Shown here piece by piece: positions 5,929 through 12,700 of a stretch of 64,000 nt of DNA (positions within the stretch are counted from its first letter, which is position 1; every line of letters begins with the position of its first letter). Origin of the DNA: Candidatus Krumholzibacteriia bacterium (GTDB lineage: Bacteria; Krumholzibacteriota; Krumholzibacteriia; JAJRXK01). Below the pieces are notes generated by a model. That model saw only the letters and a program-made list of their open reading frames with translations. It had not been told where the DNA came from and ran no database searches. The DNA is taken from positions 160,001-224,000 of the forward strand of contig JBGPIA010000003.1 of the NCBI GenBank assembly GCA_041484665.1, given 5' to 3'. The position numbers and the translations under genes are program-made.

Positions 5929-5957
5929 ACTATAGGGAGCGGTTACCGTCCTGTCGA
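5929..5957 (-). promoter_or_regulatory. sigma70-type promoter for lnt
   Basis: Minus strand TCGACA-N17-TATAGT. Confidence 0.55.
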
Positions 5958-7639
5958 GCGTGGAGGTTGTGCCGTCGCAGCATCTTGTAGAGACCCTGAC
6001 GGCTCAGCCCCAACGCTTTGGCAGCCGCAGTCTTGTTGCCCTCGGTGCAACGCAGCGCGCGCCGGATCATGATCGCCTCGACGACCTGGTAGGCCGTCCC
6101 CAGCGGCAGCAGTTGCTGCAGCTGGCCCTGCGCGTCCGCACCCTCGCCGTCGCGCAGCGCCTCGGACAGCATGTCGGCGCGCAGCGCTTCACAGCTCCCG
6201 AACAGCCCCGCCAGACGCGCGGCCTCCGCGCGGAGTTGCGCCAGGTTGCCCGGCCAGCCACAGCGTGCGAGCAGCGCTGCCGCCGCTGGCTCGATGACCG
6301 ACAGAGCGGCGGGCGCTCCGCTGGCCGTTCGCACCAGCTCGCCCAGCAGCGCGGGGACGTCCGCGGCGCGGGCACGCAGCGGGGGCAGCAGCAGGGTGCA
6401 CGGAGCCAGGTGCCAGTAGAGATCCTCGAGGAATCGCCCCCGCCGCGCGTCGAGGCGCAGATTGCGGCGGCTGGATGCGAGTACGCGCACGTCGACGCCG
6501 CGCCGTACGTGTTCGTTCACGCGGGTCACCTCGGCGCATCGCAGTGCCTGCAGCAGGCGCTCCTGCAGCATCCGCGGCAGCTCGCCGACGTCCTCCAGCA
6601 TCAGCGAACCGCCGTGGGCTTGCTCCAGCGCGCCGGCCCATCCCGCGTCGGTGCGCCTGCCGCGGGTGGCCACGCCGAACAGCTCGCGCTCCAGGCGCCG
6701 TCTCGAGATGCCGGCGCAGCCGAGCACGACGAATGGCCCCGCGCGCCGGGGGCTGTGGGCGTGGAGCCAGCGCGCCAGCTCTACGGGTTCCGATCCGCTC
6801 TCAGCCTGCAGCAGCAGCGGCTCGTCGGAAGCGGCGGCCCGTCGGGCTCGCTGCCGAAGCTCCTGCGCTAGTGCAGACGGGCCGAGCAGCAGCAGGGGTG
6901 CATCGCCAGGGGCAGGCTCGGCCGGCCGGCGCGGACGCGAGGCCGCGCGGCGGCGCCCGGCAGGTGCCCGCGACTGCGCCAGGGCCGGCGCATCGTGCGC
7001 GCGCACGTTGCGGTCGGCGGGGGCGGCCGCTGTGCGCTGCGCGGACGCGGGCCCCTGCGCGGGGTGCGGAAGCAGGAGCCACTGCGGCGGCGCCAGTGCC
7101 CTGGCCAGCGCCTCCATCCCCTGCTCGGCCACGCGCAGGCGGCCTTCGCCGGGCTCACGGCCCGCAACGAACAGCGCGAGGAAGAGCACGCAGGGCAGGC
7201 GGTCGTTGGGCAGCGCCCAACCGCGCAGCACCGCGGCATCCTGGGCGCGCAGCCACGCCGCCAGCGCATGCGGGCCGTTCGCGGAGAGCTCGACGTGCCG
7301 TCCCTCGTCGATGAGGAGTTTGAAACCCGCCAGCGGCAGCGCGTCCTCGACAGGCCAAAGCGGGCCGGACTCTGCGACGGCGGCCAGGACCGCGAACGGT
7401 TGGGGCGACGGTCCGGGGAGGGCCAGCCGGCGGGCGAGACCCAGACGAGCAGCGCCGAGCGCCGCACGCAGACACTGCAGCCGCGTGTGGAGAAGTTCCG
7501 GATCCGGCTCGCGAAGCGGAGGCGCAGAGCGTGGGGCGTTGGTCACGGGCGATCCCCCTGGGCAGGCAGATGCGCGGAAGCCGCCGGCTAGAAGAGCAAG
7601 GGCGGTGCCGCCAAGCGGCTTTTGCCGCGACTGATGCAA
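5930..7639 (-). CDS. NtrC/Fis-family sigma54-activator-like protein with degenerate AAA+ domain
   Basis: bEBP scaffold recognisable (HSPRRAGPFV..C, ELFG, AHGGSL, VDVRV, LPPLRAR..D, WPGN) plus intact Fis HTH (GNKTAAAKALGLSRQGLYKML). Start uncertain. Confidence 0.8.
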   Translation of the reverse strand: MHQSRQKPLGGTALALLAGGFRASACPGGSPVTNAPRSAPPLREPDPELLHTRLQCLRAALGAARLGLARRLALPGPSPQPFAVLAAVAESGPLWPVEDALPLAGFKLLIDEGRHVELSANGPHALAAWLRAQDAAVLRGWALPNDRLPCVLFLALFVAGREPGEGRLRVAEQGMEALARALAPPQWLLLPHPAQGPASAQRTAAAPADRNVRAHDAPALAQSRAPAGRRRAASRPRRPAEPAPGDAPLLLLGPSALAQELRQRARRAAASDEPLLLQAESGSEPVELARWLHAHSPRRAGPFVVLGCAGISRRRLERELFGVATRGRRTDAGWAGALEQAHGGSLMLEDVGELPRMLQERLLQALRCAEVTRVNEHVRRGVDVRVLASSRRNLRLDARRGRFLEDLYWHLAPCTLLLPPLRARAADVPALLGELVRTASGAPAALSVIEPAAAALLARCGWPGNLAQLRAEAARLAGLFGSCEALRADMLSEALRDGEGADAQGQLQQLLPLGTAYQVVEAIMIRRALRCTEGNKTAAAKALGLSRQGLYKMLRRHNLHARQDGNRSL

Positions 7640-8948: not shown

Positions 8949-8977
8949 ATCCTAGGGGGAGCCGCGAGCGATGTCAA
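8949..8977 (-). promoter_or_regulatory. sigma70 promoter, probably giving a leaderless purM mRNA
   Basis: TTGACA-N17-TAGGAT, then 6 nt (GCCGCC), then ATG; no SD. Confidence 0.75.
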
Positions 8978-9048
8978 AGCAGCGCGCGGCGCGGAGACGA
9001 CCTGCTGAAGGGACCGTGGGCGGGCGGAACGGGCAGATCGCCGCGCGA

Positions 9049-9119
9049 CCGAGCGGCGCGGTCGTTGAGCGGCCGCGGGCTGAGCGGTGGTCCCGCTGAG
9101 CCGGGAATCGGCTAAGCGG
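9049..9119. repeat. Five regularly spaced copies of an 8-bp motif (consensus CTGAGCGG), period 15-16 bp
   Basis: ccgagcgg 9049, ttgagcgg 9065, ctgagcgg 9080, ctgagccg 9096, ctaagcgg 9112. Confidence 0.6.
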
Positions 9120-10449
9120 CGTCGCGCTGGGGAAGGATAGTGAACGGCTGCGCGGCCTCGCGCAGGATGCGCTGGATCTCGAGGGCGCTGCCGTCGGTCT
9201 GCGGGATAATCGTGAAGCTGCCCTCGTTCACCATGCGCTCGAGCGTGTCCACCACCCGGATGTCGAACTGCGTGCCGCGAAAGCGCGTCAGCTCCGACAT
9301 GCACGCGTCCAACGAAAGTGCCGCCCGATAGGGGCGGTTGCTGGTCATGGCGTCGATTGCGTCGCAGACATTGAGGATGTGGCTGCCCTGGCTGATCTCC
9401 TCGCCGGTGAGTCCGTCGGGGTAGCCCTGACCATCGGGGCGCTCGTGGTGGTGACGGACCATGTCGGCGGCCTCGCGCAGGAATTTCATCTGTGACACGA
9501 TCTCGCCGCCGATGGCCGGGTGCGCGGCGAGGATATCGAACTCCTCCTTGGTGAGTCGCGCGGGCTTGCACACGATGTCGTTGGTGATCGCGATCTTGCC
9601 GATATCGTGGAGCAGGCCGCCGTACTCGAGGATCTCCAGCTCGCGCTCGCTCATCCCCAGCTCGCGGCCCAGCGTCGTTGCGTACTTGGCCACGCGGTAG
9701 CTGTGGCCGTGCGTGTACGGCTCGTCGGCTTCCAGCGCAGTGGTGAGCGCCGCGACCGTGTTGATATGCGCTTCCTTCATCTCTTCGAAGAGCTTGTGGC
9801 TGCGCCACACGATGAACAATGGCAGGCTGAAGAGCAGCAGCGACCACAGCCCCGCGTACTTGTAGCTGAAGATGAGGAACGCGCTCAGTAGCCCCGGCAA
9901 CAGGCCGCTCAGGAAGTGCCAGCCGTAGTTGCTCCGCCAGACCTGCACCAAGTTGCGCCCCTCGCTGAGGGCAACCACAAAGGCGGCCAGCGTCATGTTG
10001 ATCGCGGAGAACACGGCGTAGGCAATGATAGCCGGAACGAGGAACAACGGGGACGTAAGATCGCGCCCCCACGGGATCGCATGGAAGACCACGCCGGCCG
10101 TACCAACCGAAATGGACATCGCCGCTGCGTTGTAGATGAGCTTCAGCGGATGCTTGCGCTTGATCATCCCGTCGCCGAACGCGACGCCGAGGATCTCCAT
10201 CGCGATCGCCACAATGGGGCCCAGAGTAGCGATGACCGCAACGTCGATCGTGGACGACGGGAGCCATCTGCCGCCCATCGCCGTCTTGATCTCGAACAGC
10301 TCGACGCCGACGAGGAAAGCCGTGAAGCACAGCAACGGAATCCACTGGTCGCGAGTGAGTGGATGGTGGGGCCAGATCCACATAGTGAGCATTGTGCCCA
10401 CGCTGGTGAGCAGCAGGAGGTAGAGGTAGAGGACGAGTTTGTGCTTCAT
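9112..10449 (-). CDS. Membrane-anchored HD-GYP cyclic-di-GMP phosphodiesterase (multi-TM N-terminal sensor)
   Basis: About 7 hydrophobic segments, then 'PYTHGHSYRVA', 'LLHDIGK', 'HHERPDGQGYPDGL', 'DAMTSNRPYR'. Confidence 0.92.
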   Translation of the reverse strand: MKHKLVLYLYLLLLTSVGTMLTMWIWPHHPLTRDQWIPLLCFTAFLVGVELFEIKTAMGGRWLPSSTIDVAVIATLGPIVAIAMEILGVAFGDGMIKRKHPLKLIYNAAAMSISVGTAGVVFHAIPWGRDLTSPLFLVPAIIAYAVFSAINMTLAAFVVALSEGRNLVQVWRSNYGWHFLSGLLPGLLSAFLIFSYKYAGLWSLLLFSLPLFIVWRSHKLFEEMKEAHINTVAALTTALEADEPYTHGHSYRVAKYATTLGRELGMSERELEILEYGGLLHDIGKIAITNDIVCKPARLTKEEFDILAAHPAIGGEIVSQMKFLREAADMVRHHHERPDGQGYPDGLTGEEISQGSHILNVCDAIDAMTSNRPYRAALSLDACMSELTRFRGTQFDIRVVDTLERMVNEGSFTIIPQTDGSALEIQRILREAAQPFTILPQRDAA

Positions 10450-10482
10450 GGTAAACTGGAGCCGGTCGGGGAGGTGGTCAGG

Positions 10483-10521
10483 CTACCACTTGATCTTGCT
10501 TCCCAGCAGCCAAGCGATCAC
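10483..10521 (-). CDS. Putative small peptide MIAWLLGSKIKW (or 17-aa MRWFAVIAWLLGSKIKW from GTG 10536)
   Basis: GAGGTG SD 7 nt before GTG at 10521. TAG at 10485-10483, 33 nt upstream of the HD-GYP ATG. Below the ORF-track size cutoff. Confidence 0.55.
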   Translation of the reverse strand: MIAWLLGSKIKW

Positions 10522-10718
10522 GGCGAACCACCTCACTCTTGGTTGATTTGCCGTCCAGCTCCGCTGATGGTGACGGCAGTGAGGCTCCGCTCAGCTCTGT
10601 TCGTTCCGCTTGTCCGCTTATTCCAGTGGTTCTCTCCTCGACCGGCCCATCAAAAGGTTGACGGGAGTCCAGCCACCGGCGCACCGGACCTGGCCCCCCC
10701 GAATGTCTCGGCGATCGC

Positions 10719-11504
10719 CTAGTGGGTGCCCGTGGCTTGCGAGGCCGGGTAGACGAGCTCCATGAACTCGGCCTGGCCCAGGCTGCGGTTCAGGGCATCC
10801 AGCGTGGCGTAAACCGCCGTCTCGTAGAGAGATCCTCGCTGCAGGCAGGTGCCGCAGAGGCGGCTGAGCTCCCTGCCCCTGCCGAAATCCAGGAGCACCA
10901 AGATCAGGCTGGTGCCCGACAGCTCCAGCAGCCTGACCTCGCGCACGAGGGCCTCGTAGCCCGGCTGGAGCAAATTGCGCACCGCTTCGACGGTCGCGCG
11001 GGCCACGATTTCGACCGCAGCCTCCTGGTCCTTGGCCGGACCCACGGCGCGGCCTGGAACGCCCTCGATTCCCTCGAACACCAGTTCGACCTCGGCCATG
11101 AAGCTGCCGCTGCCCATGGTGCAGTGTACGGCGGACAGCTGGACCCGCTCCCGCTCGGGGACCATCTTCAGAACGGCCGGCCGGGTTGCCTCGTCGCCTC
11201 GCTCATCCTCCGGAGAGTGCGGCTGGGTGTGCGCCATTGCGTCCAGCCCCCGCGGGCCCGGCTCGTTCTGGCTGACGAGCTGGACCACTCCGATCTTGCG
11301 ATGATCGATGTCGACGCCGCCTTTGCGGAGGATGACCTCGGCGTCCCGCACGATCTTCTGCGGGGCGCGGCGCGTGTCCGAGACGATGTCTACGTTGCGG
11401 ATCTCCCCGCGGTCATCGACGACGATCCGGCAATACCTGACGTTCTGGATCTGTGCGAGCTCGGTATCGAAGGCGTGGATCTGGTCGGGGGTGAGCCTCG
11501 TCAT
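10719..11504 (-). CDS. Conserved hypothetical cytoplasmic protein ('PQKIVRD...IDHRKIGVVQ' family)
   Basis: Strong AAGGAGA RBS and normal globular composition. N-domain 'DIVSDTRRAPQKIVRDAE...DIDHRKIGVVQL'. C-domain with two related motifs 'ARATVEAV' and 'VYATLDALNR'. Confidence 0.8.
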   Translation of the reverse strand: MTRLTPDQIHAFDTELAQIQNVRYCRIVVDDRGEIRNVDIVSDTRRAPQKIVRDAEVILRKGGVDIDHRKIGVVQLVSQNEPGPRGLDAMAHTQPHSPEDERGDEATRPAVLKMVPERERVQLSAVHCTMGSGSFMAEVELVFEGIEGVPGRAVGPAKDQEAAVEIVARATVEAVRNLLQPGYEALVREVRLLELSGTSLILVLLDFGRGRELSRLCGTCLQRGSLYETAVYATLDALNRSLGQAEFMELVYPASQATGTH

Positions 11505-11791
11505 GACCTGACGTCTCCTTTCCCAGCAGACCAACCCCGCTGAGTTCCTGGATGAACGTCAGCCCGTAACCACAAGCGTACCATATGACTTTCGTGCTGG
11601 CCAATCCATCCGGCCCGGCGCAGCGACCCCCTTATAGCACAGGACCACACCCAAGGCGCACGTGGAATTTCGAGCCCCTGACGGTCCCTGGCTCGGCCGG
11701 CCGCTGGCGTACGCCGGCTGGCAGCTGTGGCGCCCTCCCTGCGCCGGGGTCATGGCGGATCATGGGGCAGACCGGGAAGCAGGGGGGAAGG

Positions 11792-12700
11792 CTATTCCGG
11801 GGTCCAGCGCGTGAACGCGTGGAGCTCGGCGCATCGGCCGCGGATCTGGTCGGCCGTGAGATCCGTGATACGGTCCACGCTGAAGTGCTCGGTCGTGAAG
11901 CTGGCCAGGACCGTCCCGAATCCCATGGCGCGGCGGAGCTCCTCGTCGTCGAAGCGTCCGGCCCGAGCCAGGTGCCCCAGGAAGCCGCCGGCGAAGGCAT
12001 CGCCCGCCCCTGTGGGATCGAAGACGCGCTCCAGCAGCACCGCCGGTACGGCGAAGCGCGACTCCGGCGTGAACAAGAGCGCGCCGTGCTCGCCCTTCTT
12101 CACCACCACCCAGCGCGGCCCCAGCGCCCGGATCTGCGCCACCGCCGCTGGCAGCAAGGCGTGCCCGGTGAGCTGGCGGGCCTCCTCCTCGTTCACGAAC
12201 ACGAGGTCCGCGCGCGCCAGCACCGCCTTGAGATCGTCCAATGCCGTCTCGATCCACAGATTCATCGTGTCGACCGCGACAAGCCTGGGCCGGGAGATCT
12301 GGTCGAACACCTCCAGCTGCAGGGCCGGGTGGATGTTGGCGAGGAACAGGATCGGCGCGTCGCGGTAGGCGGGTGGCAGCTTGGGATGGAAGTGCTCGAA
12401 GACGTTGAGCTGCGTGAACAGCGTATCGCGGTGGTTCATGTCTTTGTGGTAGCGGCCGCCCCAACGGAACGTCTTTCCGGGCGCCACCTCCAGACCCGCG
12501 CAATCGATGCCGCGCCGCCGGAACAGCCCGCGCGCGCTCTCGGGGAAATCCTCCCCCACCACCGCTACCAGCTTGATGCTGGTGAAATAGCTCGCAGCCA
12601 GCGCGGCGTAGCTGGCGCTGCCGCCCAGGCACTCCTCCGCCGAGCCATACGGCGTGCTGATGCTGTCCAGGGCGACGGAGCCGACGACCACGATGTCCAT
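11792..12700 (-). CDS. PfkB-family carbohydrate/nucleoside kinase
   Basis: 'VVGSVALD', 'LGGSASY', 'VNEEEA', 'KKGEHGA', 'DPTGAGDAFAGGF'. Confidence 0.93.
   Translation of the reverse strand: MDIVVVGSVALDSISTPYGSAEECLGGSASYAALAASYFTSIKLVAVVGEDFPESARGLFRRRGIDCAGLEVAPGKTFRWGGRYHKDMNHRDTLFTQLNVFEHFHPKLPPAYRDAPILFLANIHPALQLEVFDQISRPRLVAVDTMNLWIETALDDLKAVLARADLVFVNEEEARQLTGHALLPAAVAQIRALGPRWVVVKKGEHGALLFTPESRFAVPAVLLERVFDPTGAGDAFAGGFLGHLARAGRFDDEELRRAMGFGTVLASFTTEHFSVDRITDLTADQIRGRCAELHAFTRWTPE

Follow-up and report, generated by a model that had tools for sequence, protein, structure and literature searches.

The DNA considered here is a 64,000-nucleotide (nt) stretch from a Candidatus Krumholzibacteriia bacterium (contig JBGPIA010000003.1, positions 160,001 to 224,000), referred to below as the window, and the subject is a small open reading frame (sORF) and the RNA around it, located between two conserved minus-strand genes. 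The first of these genes encodes a hypothetical protein of 261 amino acids (aa) (11504-10719) and, after a 269-nt gap, the second encodes a 445-aa protein (10449-9112) in which a MASE9 membrane sensor is fused to an HD-GYP domain. The features of the locus are as follows.

9112..10449, minus strand: MASE9-HD-GYP protein, 445 aa, with a sensor modelled with the fold of an energy-coupling factor (ECF) S-component and with HD, HHHE, GYP, and RxYR motifs (family scan, motifs, model)
10459..10473, minus strand: 3′ arm of the long-range helix P1, paired with 10634-10648 and ending 10 nt before the MASE9 ATG
10476..10639, strand not given: 164-nt soil-metatranscriptome contig, nearly the P1 loop (5 differences, depth 5.6, one study)
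10483..10521, minus strand: sORF in the gap between the two genes, 12 codons plus stop, hydrophobic, with the C-terminus Lys-Ile-Lys-Trp
10528..10534, minus strand: GAGGTGG, Shine-Dalgarno (SD) sequence of the sORF (sequence reading)
10549..10578, minus strand: hairpin with the SD-proximal AGCGG in its loop (z -2.7 in the window, covariation in relatives)
10561..10618, minus strand: four AGCGG motifs, starting at 10618, 10610, 10591, and 10565 (motif reading)
10634..10648, minus strand: 5′ arm of P1, 15 consecutive pairs with 10459-10473 (0 of 40 shuffles as good)
10719..11504, minus strand: conserved two-domain cytoplasmic protein, 261 aa (model predicted local distance difference test score, pLDDT, 87.5)

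The open reading frame (ORF) at 10483-10536 on the minus strand translates as VRWFAVIAWLLGSKIKW*, and its SD (10534-10528) overlaps the upstream GTG and lies 6 nt ahead of a second GTG at 10521. Because the sORF start codons of relatives keep a matching distance from the same SD, the 12-residue form that starts at 10521 is the likely product. SD strength is -12.3 kcal/mol for the sORF versus -1.7 kcal/mol for the MASE9 ATG at 10449, which means that the MASE9 start has no SD of its own, and no intrinsic terminator was called 3′ of the sORF on the coding strand. By chance, an SD followed by a Trp-ending ORF of 10-30 codons is expected in about 7e-4 of 270-nt gaps, based on 27 occurrences (duplicates included) in the 5.4-Mb genome. 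A preliminary description of this DNA had singled out the sORF for its strong SD, hydrophobic product, and stop 33 nt ahead of the HD-GYP start, all of which are confirmed by the sequence, the family scans, and this chance estimate.

Counterparts of the sORF were called between the hypothetical gene and the MASE9 gene in 85 of 113 distinct gaps from eight phyla, using a fixed rule that took the best SD and required 10-50 codons and a hydrophobic stretch. Loci outside the window's phylum represent the best 80 of 577 matches, with phyla taken from record titles, and a peptide was called in 62 of 64 gaps from these phyla (Armatimonadota, Bacillota, Atribacterota, Gemmatimonadota, Sumerlaeota, Eisenbacteria, and Actinomycetota) versus 23 of 49 gaps from the window's phylum. 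The 26 uncalled gaps of the latter comprise 24 from families f4, f5, f7, and f8, one from genome G024, and one interrupted by an N run that still displays the beginning of a peptide. Fourteen further regions from the window's phylum yielded eleven more in-locus peptides, and a peptide was present in 28 of the 30 best MASE9-centred loci from Bacillota. The scan upstream of collected homologues that the preliminary description proposed has therefore revealed a conserved sORF, and gene order supports its statement that the sORF, the hypothetical gene, and the membrane HD-GYP gene form a cassette in other phyla.

Crude pairwise ratios of nonsynonymous to synonymous change (pN/pS) were 0.05-0.32 in six of nine groups, in which amino-acid conservation spans the entire peptide, and 0.77 and 0.87 in two groups for which the ungapped alignment is unreliable. 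The counterparts appear to be mostly under purifying selection, and the conservation of SD, start, and frame, together with the excess of synonymous changes, indicates that the sORF is a real protein-coding gene. The peptides are 11-47 residues long, with forms of 11-15 residues in families f1 and f2, and all in-locus peptides have a hydrophobic core, as the calling rule demanded. Trp is the last residue in 36 of 79 distinct homologous peptides and lies within the last four residues in 57; the ending G-[AS]-x-x-x-W suggested earlier as a general motif proved too narrow, matching 10 of the 79. Most long forms can be read as having the anatomy of a cleaved precursor, beginning with basic residues, continuing through a hydrophobic core and a Gly/Ala-rich site, and finishing in a short aromatic tail, and Armatimonadota forms consist of a signal-peptide-like half and a polar tail of 20-25 residues.

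The family scan of the 445-aa protein agrees with the earlier claim that the output of this locus is an HD-GYP domain instead of a histidine kinase. MASE9 (PF20972; E 9e-9, 36 bits versus a cut-off of 24.3) lies N-terminal to the HD-GYP domain, which is matched by HD_5 (E 2e-32, 112.5 bits). Judged against the accessible part of the MASE9 preprint, the catalytic motifs HD, HHHE, GYP, D, and RxY[K/R] and the N-terminal Glu are all in place, and the HD-GYP domain is a predicted phosphodiesterase of cyclic diguanylate (c-di-GMP). The model of the MASE9 domain (pLDDT 94.8) aligns with ECF S-components at Z 14.7 with a root-mean-square deviation (rmsd) of 3.4 over 189 residues, and the top 15 rows of the structure ranking are ECF-type substrate-binding proteins, followed by an unrelated row at Z 8.1; Foldseek likewise ranked S-components in its first 17 rows, but with no row at E≤0.001. 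S-components accommodate small ligands in a pocket that opens to the outside, and the MASE9 sensor is predicted by the model to have this fold and such a ligand pocket. Compared with the S-components RibU, FolT, BioY, ThiT, and NikM/CbiM, the MASE9 model shares the fold (Z 11.3-14.7), but sequence identity is ≤20%, the domain is fused to an enzyme, and a shared fold shows no function. No ECF module genes were seen beside the MASE9 gene in the locus, where the search was confined, with no genome-wide search made.

Known MASE9-HD-GYP proteins include TM1467 of Thermotoga maritima and HdgA of Streptomyces venezuelae (bioRxiv 10.1101/2021.11.05.467447, PMC6205966), which share the domain pair and catalytic motifs with the window's protein; in their accessible parts, these papers name no ligand, peptide, or RNA element. 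The accessible part of the preprint proposes that a ligand, left unnamed, binds inside the membrane, and the word "peptide" does not occur in it (bioRxiv 10.1101/2021.11.05.467447). The hdgA mutant had no developmental phenotype, for which its authors suspect that an activating signal was absent, and hdgA and hdgB are arranged in tandem in Streptomyces (PMC6205966, accessible part). Two tandem MASE9-HD genes also follow a single peptide gene in loci L063, L072, L074, L080, and L102.

The sORF is surrounded by an undescribed RNA element that is absent from Rfam, although larger motif catalogues may hold it, and that the preliminary description did not mention. In the window, P1 closes a 160-nt loop enclosing the leader and the sORF. 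Across loci, P1 has a median of 15 pairs and joins the region upstream of the repeats with the region after the stop, with arms that vary by lineage. P1 outscored every one of its 40 shuffles in 78 of 96 and in 16 of 22 loci with a leader. Where the genome lacks the hypothetical gene, this held for none of eight peptide genes, and among relocated peptide genes (described below) it held for 1 of 24. A free-energy duplex test of P1 was noisy, with the cognate arm best in 16 of 85 cases, and an ungapped score placed this arm above 40 random ones in 8 of 15 tests, a limited preference that is attributed to related loci having arms in common.

Leaders with a peptide contain 2-6 AGCG[GA] motifs versus 0-1 in gaps of peptide-free lineages, and the usual layout is a tandem at -65/-60 plus one motif near -40. 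The hairpin around the proximal motif has a mean of 10.7 enclosing pairs versus 6.7 in shuffles, with z < -1.5 in 42 of 74 leaders (seven loci had no proximal motif). Among 47 of the 74 leaders, picked for their common layout and aligned, five pairs of the hairpin show 85% pairing with 61 cells changed on both sides, matched by 0 of 500 shuffles, and slid controls gave 36-56% pairing. An RNA model built from this alignment matched the window once and recovered 23 of 25 Actinomycetota loci with the hypothetical gene (E<0.05), none of which was in the training set; in genomes where that gene has no full match, it recovered 0 of 12 loci. A genome-wide search with the model gave one match in the organism's own genome and none in f4-f9 or f6 genomes, which shows no absence because 94 candidates were scored per genome and known f6 leaders were missed; no further leaders that would indicate a regulon were evident in the own genome.

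Rfam has no match in the window at 10400-11800 (best E 4.6) and none for the element across 20 loci, with a single unrelated raiA match. The RNA contig covering the loop comes from the sole RNA run found, and such contigs reveal neither strand nor ends; the lack of other cover within 9000-11700 proves nothing. Pairing of the sORF SD with the post-stop stretch (z -2.4 in the window) was discarded as not conserved (mean z -0.57 and -0.24). Whole-leader folding energy is ordinary (z -0.26), the signal being in the two helices. Leaders bound by CsrA/RsmA similarly have a repeated short motif with one copy in a hairpin loop near the SD, and attenuator leader peptides are likewise short ORFs within structured leaders, but many copies of the motif here read AGCGA, without the GGA. 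The own genome has csrA, which was found in one of five leader-bearing Actinomycetota genomes of unknown completeness. In seven other loci (L177, L181, L184, L186, L188, L209, and L227), an additional AGCG[GA] tandem is found close to MASE9 itself, 5-50 nt ahead of its start codon.

Natural rearrangements separate the peptide gene from this arrangement. Families f4, f5, f7, f8, and f9 have no in-locus sORF and possess a stand-alone gene for a hydrophobic peptide with 1-7 G-x-S-x-W units, detected in 40 of 42 genomes of these families versus 0 of 25 others (E≤1e-3) with three such peptides as the query, which other peptide types would escape. A sigma-54-type motif precedes 30 of 36 stand-alone peptide ORFs, and terminator-like hairpins occur at many. 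Six low-GC Actinomycetota loci keep the peptide and MASE9 and have no AGCG leader; the hypothetical gene was not found in the five of them that were re-searched, which have small genomes with no completeness given. Two of the six, L205 and L213, carry identical tandem copies of the peptide, and the peptide gene is divergent from MASE9 and without repeats in three of five other Actinomycetota loci lacking the hypothetical gene. A pattern search of four MASE9-negative f2 genomes found no SD-led hydrophobic Trp ORF in any of them, with a positive control. The peptide tracks MASE9, and neither leader nor P1 was seen in the absence of the hypothetical gene; the converse fails because the relocated clade keeps that gene. 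From gene arrangement, the relocated, divergent, and duplicated forms argue that the peptide acts in trans.

Two further observations concern the relocated families. Sigma-54-type -24/-12 motifs lie 100-150 nt upstream of MASE9 in f4, f7, and f9 (L058, L059, L154, L155, L158, L159, and L275), read by eye except for L275, which was read by pattern, and the receptor and the relocated peptide may share a sigma-54 regulator. In f4 (L246, L248-L252, and L254-L257), the relocated gene for the Trp peptide immediately precedes one for a membrane protein of ∼300 aa, which we take to be UbiA/MenA prenyltransferase-like in appearance; by analogy, Trp prenylation as in ComX is a lead for the f4 peptide.

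The upstream protein has no Pfam or NCBIfam match, and a match to it was found in 56 of 61 genomes, with a homologue from Krumholzibacteria at 47% identity. Its N-terminal domain (alpha-beta-beta-alpha-beta, with conserved Arg, Asp, and Lys) could not be assigned to one fold, several small folds being about equal (ZnT C-terminal domain Z 9.1, EscJ Z 8.1). Residues 119-243 resemble the regulatory domain of LeuA/citramalate synthase (Foldseek LeuA E 1.9e-5; 3f6g Z 9.4, rmsd 2.9, 108 residues), and a LeuA-type regulatory fold is predicted for the C-terminus from the model. The fold is common to PF08502, but the upstream protein has no catalytic domain and PF08502 matched only 1 of 50 homologues (E 0.048). 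Alongside these fold searches, a PDB sequence search gave no match below E 0.95, and an Atlas search returned unnamed clusters only. Positions V52, H68, A74, and Q75, within residues 46-75, are conserved in 81-90% of 84 homologues from leader-bearing loci versus only 0-17% of 23 from the leaderless clade, a difference that reflects one event. A decayed fragment of the hypothetical gene lies 5′ of MASE9 in L198/L268 (genome G238), with no leader and no sORF called, and in the f2 genomes G010 and G035 (L151, L152) the gene lies directly before purM, with MASE9, leader, and sORF absent there.

The two genes flanking the sORF occur once each in the window's genome (tblastn). In 64 of 80 loci the hypothetical gene is followed by MASE9, and of the remaining 16 loci, 11 end within 600 nt. 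Among 30 Actinomycetota pairs, 20 are divergent, 7 co-directional, and 3 unlinked, and in inverted pairs the leader and sORF remain on the MASE9 side. Of 151 Bacillota genomes, 72 have MASE9, 70 the hypothetical gene, and 59 both; 11 of 13 MASE9-only Bacillota loci were inspected, with no HD domain in nine and no peptide in ten. Neighbours in the window are pfkB, argS, purM, a sigma-54 activator, and lnt, and no exporter, protease, or processing or maturation enzyme was seen in the window locus. The sigma-54 activator-like gene (5930-7639) comes after purM, and a sigma-70-like promoter match (8949-8977) lies ahead of purM. Elsewhere, five Actinomycetota loci (L177, L178, L179, L184, and L189) have a small helix-turn-helix ORF, presumably BldC-like, in the space that separates the leader from the divergent hypothetical gene, and a raiA RNA motif lies upstream of the hypothetical gene in Atribacterota (L109:2848-3051).

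The interpretation toward which we lean, if only slightly, is that the Trp tail of the peptide fits into the MASE9 pocket and thereby determines HD-GYP activity, and that the P1 loop allows much peptide and little receptor to be made from one transcript. In most phyla the peptide would be a precursor in which a basic N-terminus, a hydrophobic core, and a stretch of small residues resembling a cleavage site can be recognised, and this anatomy suggests that a Trp-bearing tail of 4-6 residues could be released outside, where it would bind the predicted outward-facing pocket and set the c-di-GMP-degrading activity of the fused domain; the 12-residue peptide of the window would be a shortened version. 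The loop with leader and sORF would be cut out or stabilised as an abundant mini-mRNA, for which RNase III, whose gene is present in the genome, is a candidate. As P1 would concurrently cover the MASE9 start region, peptide and receptor would be made at different levels. In the weakest step, the upstream protein would bind the AGCG repeats and gate the switch via its amino-acid-sensor-like domain. A bolder version, namely cell-to-cell signalling across several phyla with a Trp-tailed pheromone, a sensor derived from vitamin-transporter S-components, c-di-GMP breakdown, an excised looped mini-transcript, and an RNA-binding amino-acid-sensing protein, is improbable as a whole.

Several points weigh against this interpretation. 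Twelve residues are too few for a signal peptide, pN/pS is 0.60 in f1, the window's own family, and 22 of 79 peptides have no Trp among their last four residues. Relocation represents one event on the MASE9 tree (support 97/89), and the relocated genes have a GAF-sigma-54 activator as neighbour in f5 and f8 and are distant from MASE9 in f4, leaving their tie to MASE9 indirect. A complex prediction for the G125 MASE9 domain with its own 30-residue relocated peptide scored 0.05 versus a mark of 0.32, which counts neither for nor against binding. Genome G024 has MASE9, and neither form of the peptide was found in it. The upstream protein is retained in the clade without the leader, so RNA binding could not be its sole role, and peptide translation, export, binding, and enzyme control are all predicted. 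The original proposal that the peptide is a ligand or modulator of the transmembrane sensor has thus gained from gene order and the ligand-pocket fold as regards trans action on MASE9; the control of the phosphodiesterase that it implies is putative.

Three other explanations are less favoured. The peptide might be an unreleased subunit or modulator that packs against MASE9 in the membrane of the same cell and tunes the enzyme, for which MgrB and PhoQ provide a precedent. Trans action suits such a modulator equally, as do the hydrophobic core of all in-locus peptides (demanded by the rule), the absence of any exporter or protease seen in the window locus, and the f1 and f2 forms of 11-15 residues, too short for Sec export; yet the Trp pentapeptide repeats of up to 7 units and the Armatimonadota forms, with their signal-peptide-like half and polar tail, resemble cut precursors, and 12 residues are insufficient to span a membrane. 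A same-cell modulator is unlikely. Somewhat less probable still is that the sORF is a cis-acting leader peptide whose product has no target, with ribosome transit or Trp-dependent stalling opening P1 and licensing HD-GYP expression. The sORF lies within the P1 loop, the 3′ arm of P1 stops just ahead of the SD-less MASE9 start, a pyrimidine-rich tail follows P1 in many loci, a single Trp codon lies near the sORF stop, and leader, P1, and in-locus sORF vanish together, all of which would fit. However, peptide genes persist without P1 or AGCG repeats, occur on the opposite strand, in tandem, or alone with terminator-like hairpins of their own, and are conserved at the amino-acid level over the whole peptide in the groups with low pN/pS. 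A TnaC-type arrest peptide would act in cis alone, and the sORF is in cis in the window and divergent, duplicated, or detached elsewhere; a cis-leader role may nonetheless be additional to peptide signalling in P1-bearing loci.

The peptide could also act in trans on a target other than MASE9, such as a sigma-54 activator circuit or the upstream protein's LeuA-like domain. In favour, that protein has a fold of a ligand-binding type, and a GAF-sigma-54 activator comes after the relocated peptides in f5 and f8. Against it, the peptide still sits next to MASE9 in genomes that yielded no upstream protein, and MASE9-negative genomes that retain this protein yielded no peptide; this alternative seems very unlikely.

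Compared with known peptide systems, the predicted MASE9 pathway has a mixture of familiar and distinct features. In agr and comCDE, as here, a small hydrophobic peptide gene directly precedes a polytopic sensor, and this part of the likeness drawn in the preliminary description stands. Quorum sensing proper is not supported by the locus: the peptide has no room for a signal peptide, and neither an exporter or processing enzyme nor a maturation gene of the AgrB or ComAB type was seen there. The output here is HD-GYP, with no histidine kinase or response regulator, the sensor model has the S-component fold, and the sORF is embedded in a structured RNA, an extra cis-regulatory layer absent from the agr/com comparison. 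Phr and PapR propeptides also pair a signal-peptide-like precursor with a short C-terminal unit, which is repeated in the relocated forms here, but are re-imported and bind cytoplasmic RRNPP proteins, whereas the linked partner here is a membrane sensor. Literature searches found no published account of a peptide-MASE9 pairing; the accessible part of a Clostridioides difficile small-protein paper (PMC13724677) does not mention MASE, and the one supplement of PMC8632094 consulted gave no match. The unpublished genomes G132, G179, G219, and G251 are counted in some tallies, with no locus drawn from them.

Altogether, the first reading of this locus is partly supported, and is extended to a proposed form of signalling from a peptide to a membrane sensor in which a previously undescribed RNA element takes part. 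For the orphan sensor MASE9, no phenotype was seen in the one member studied, perhaps because its signal was missing. A candidate ligand can now be named that is cheap to synthesise, with a fold that hints at where it binds, and S. venezuelae would be relevant as a test species if its locus carries the peptide. If the proposed mechanism is true, peptide signalling would be tied directly to c-di-GMP turnover in at least eight phyla, a transporter fold would have taken on the role of peptide receptor, and the known repertoire would grow by an RNA element without an Rfam entry and a candidate new RNA-binding family.

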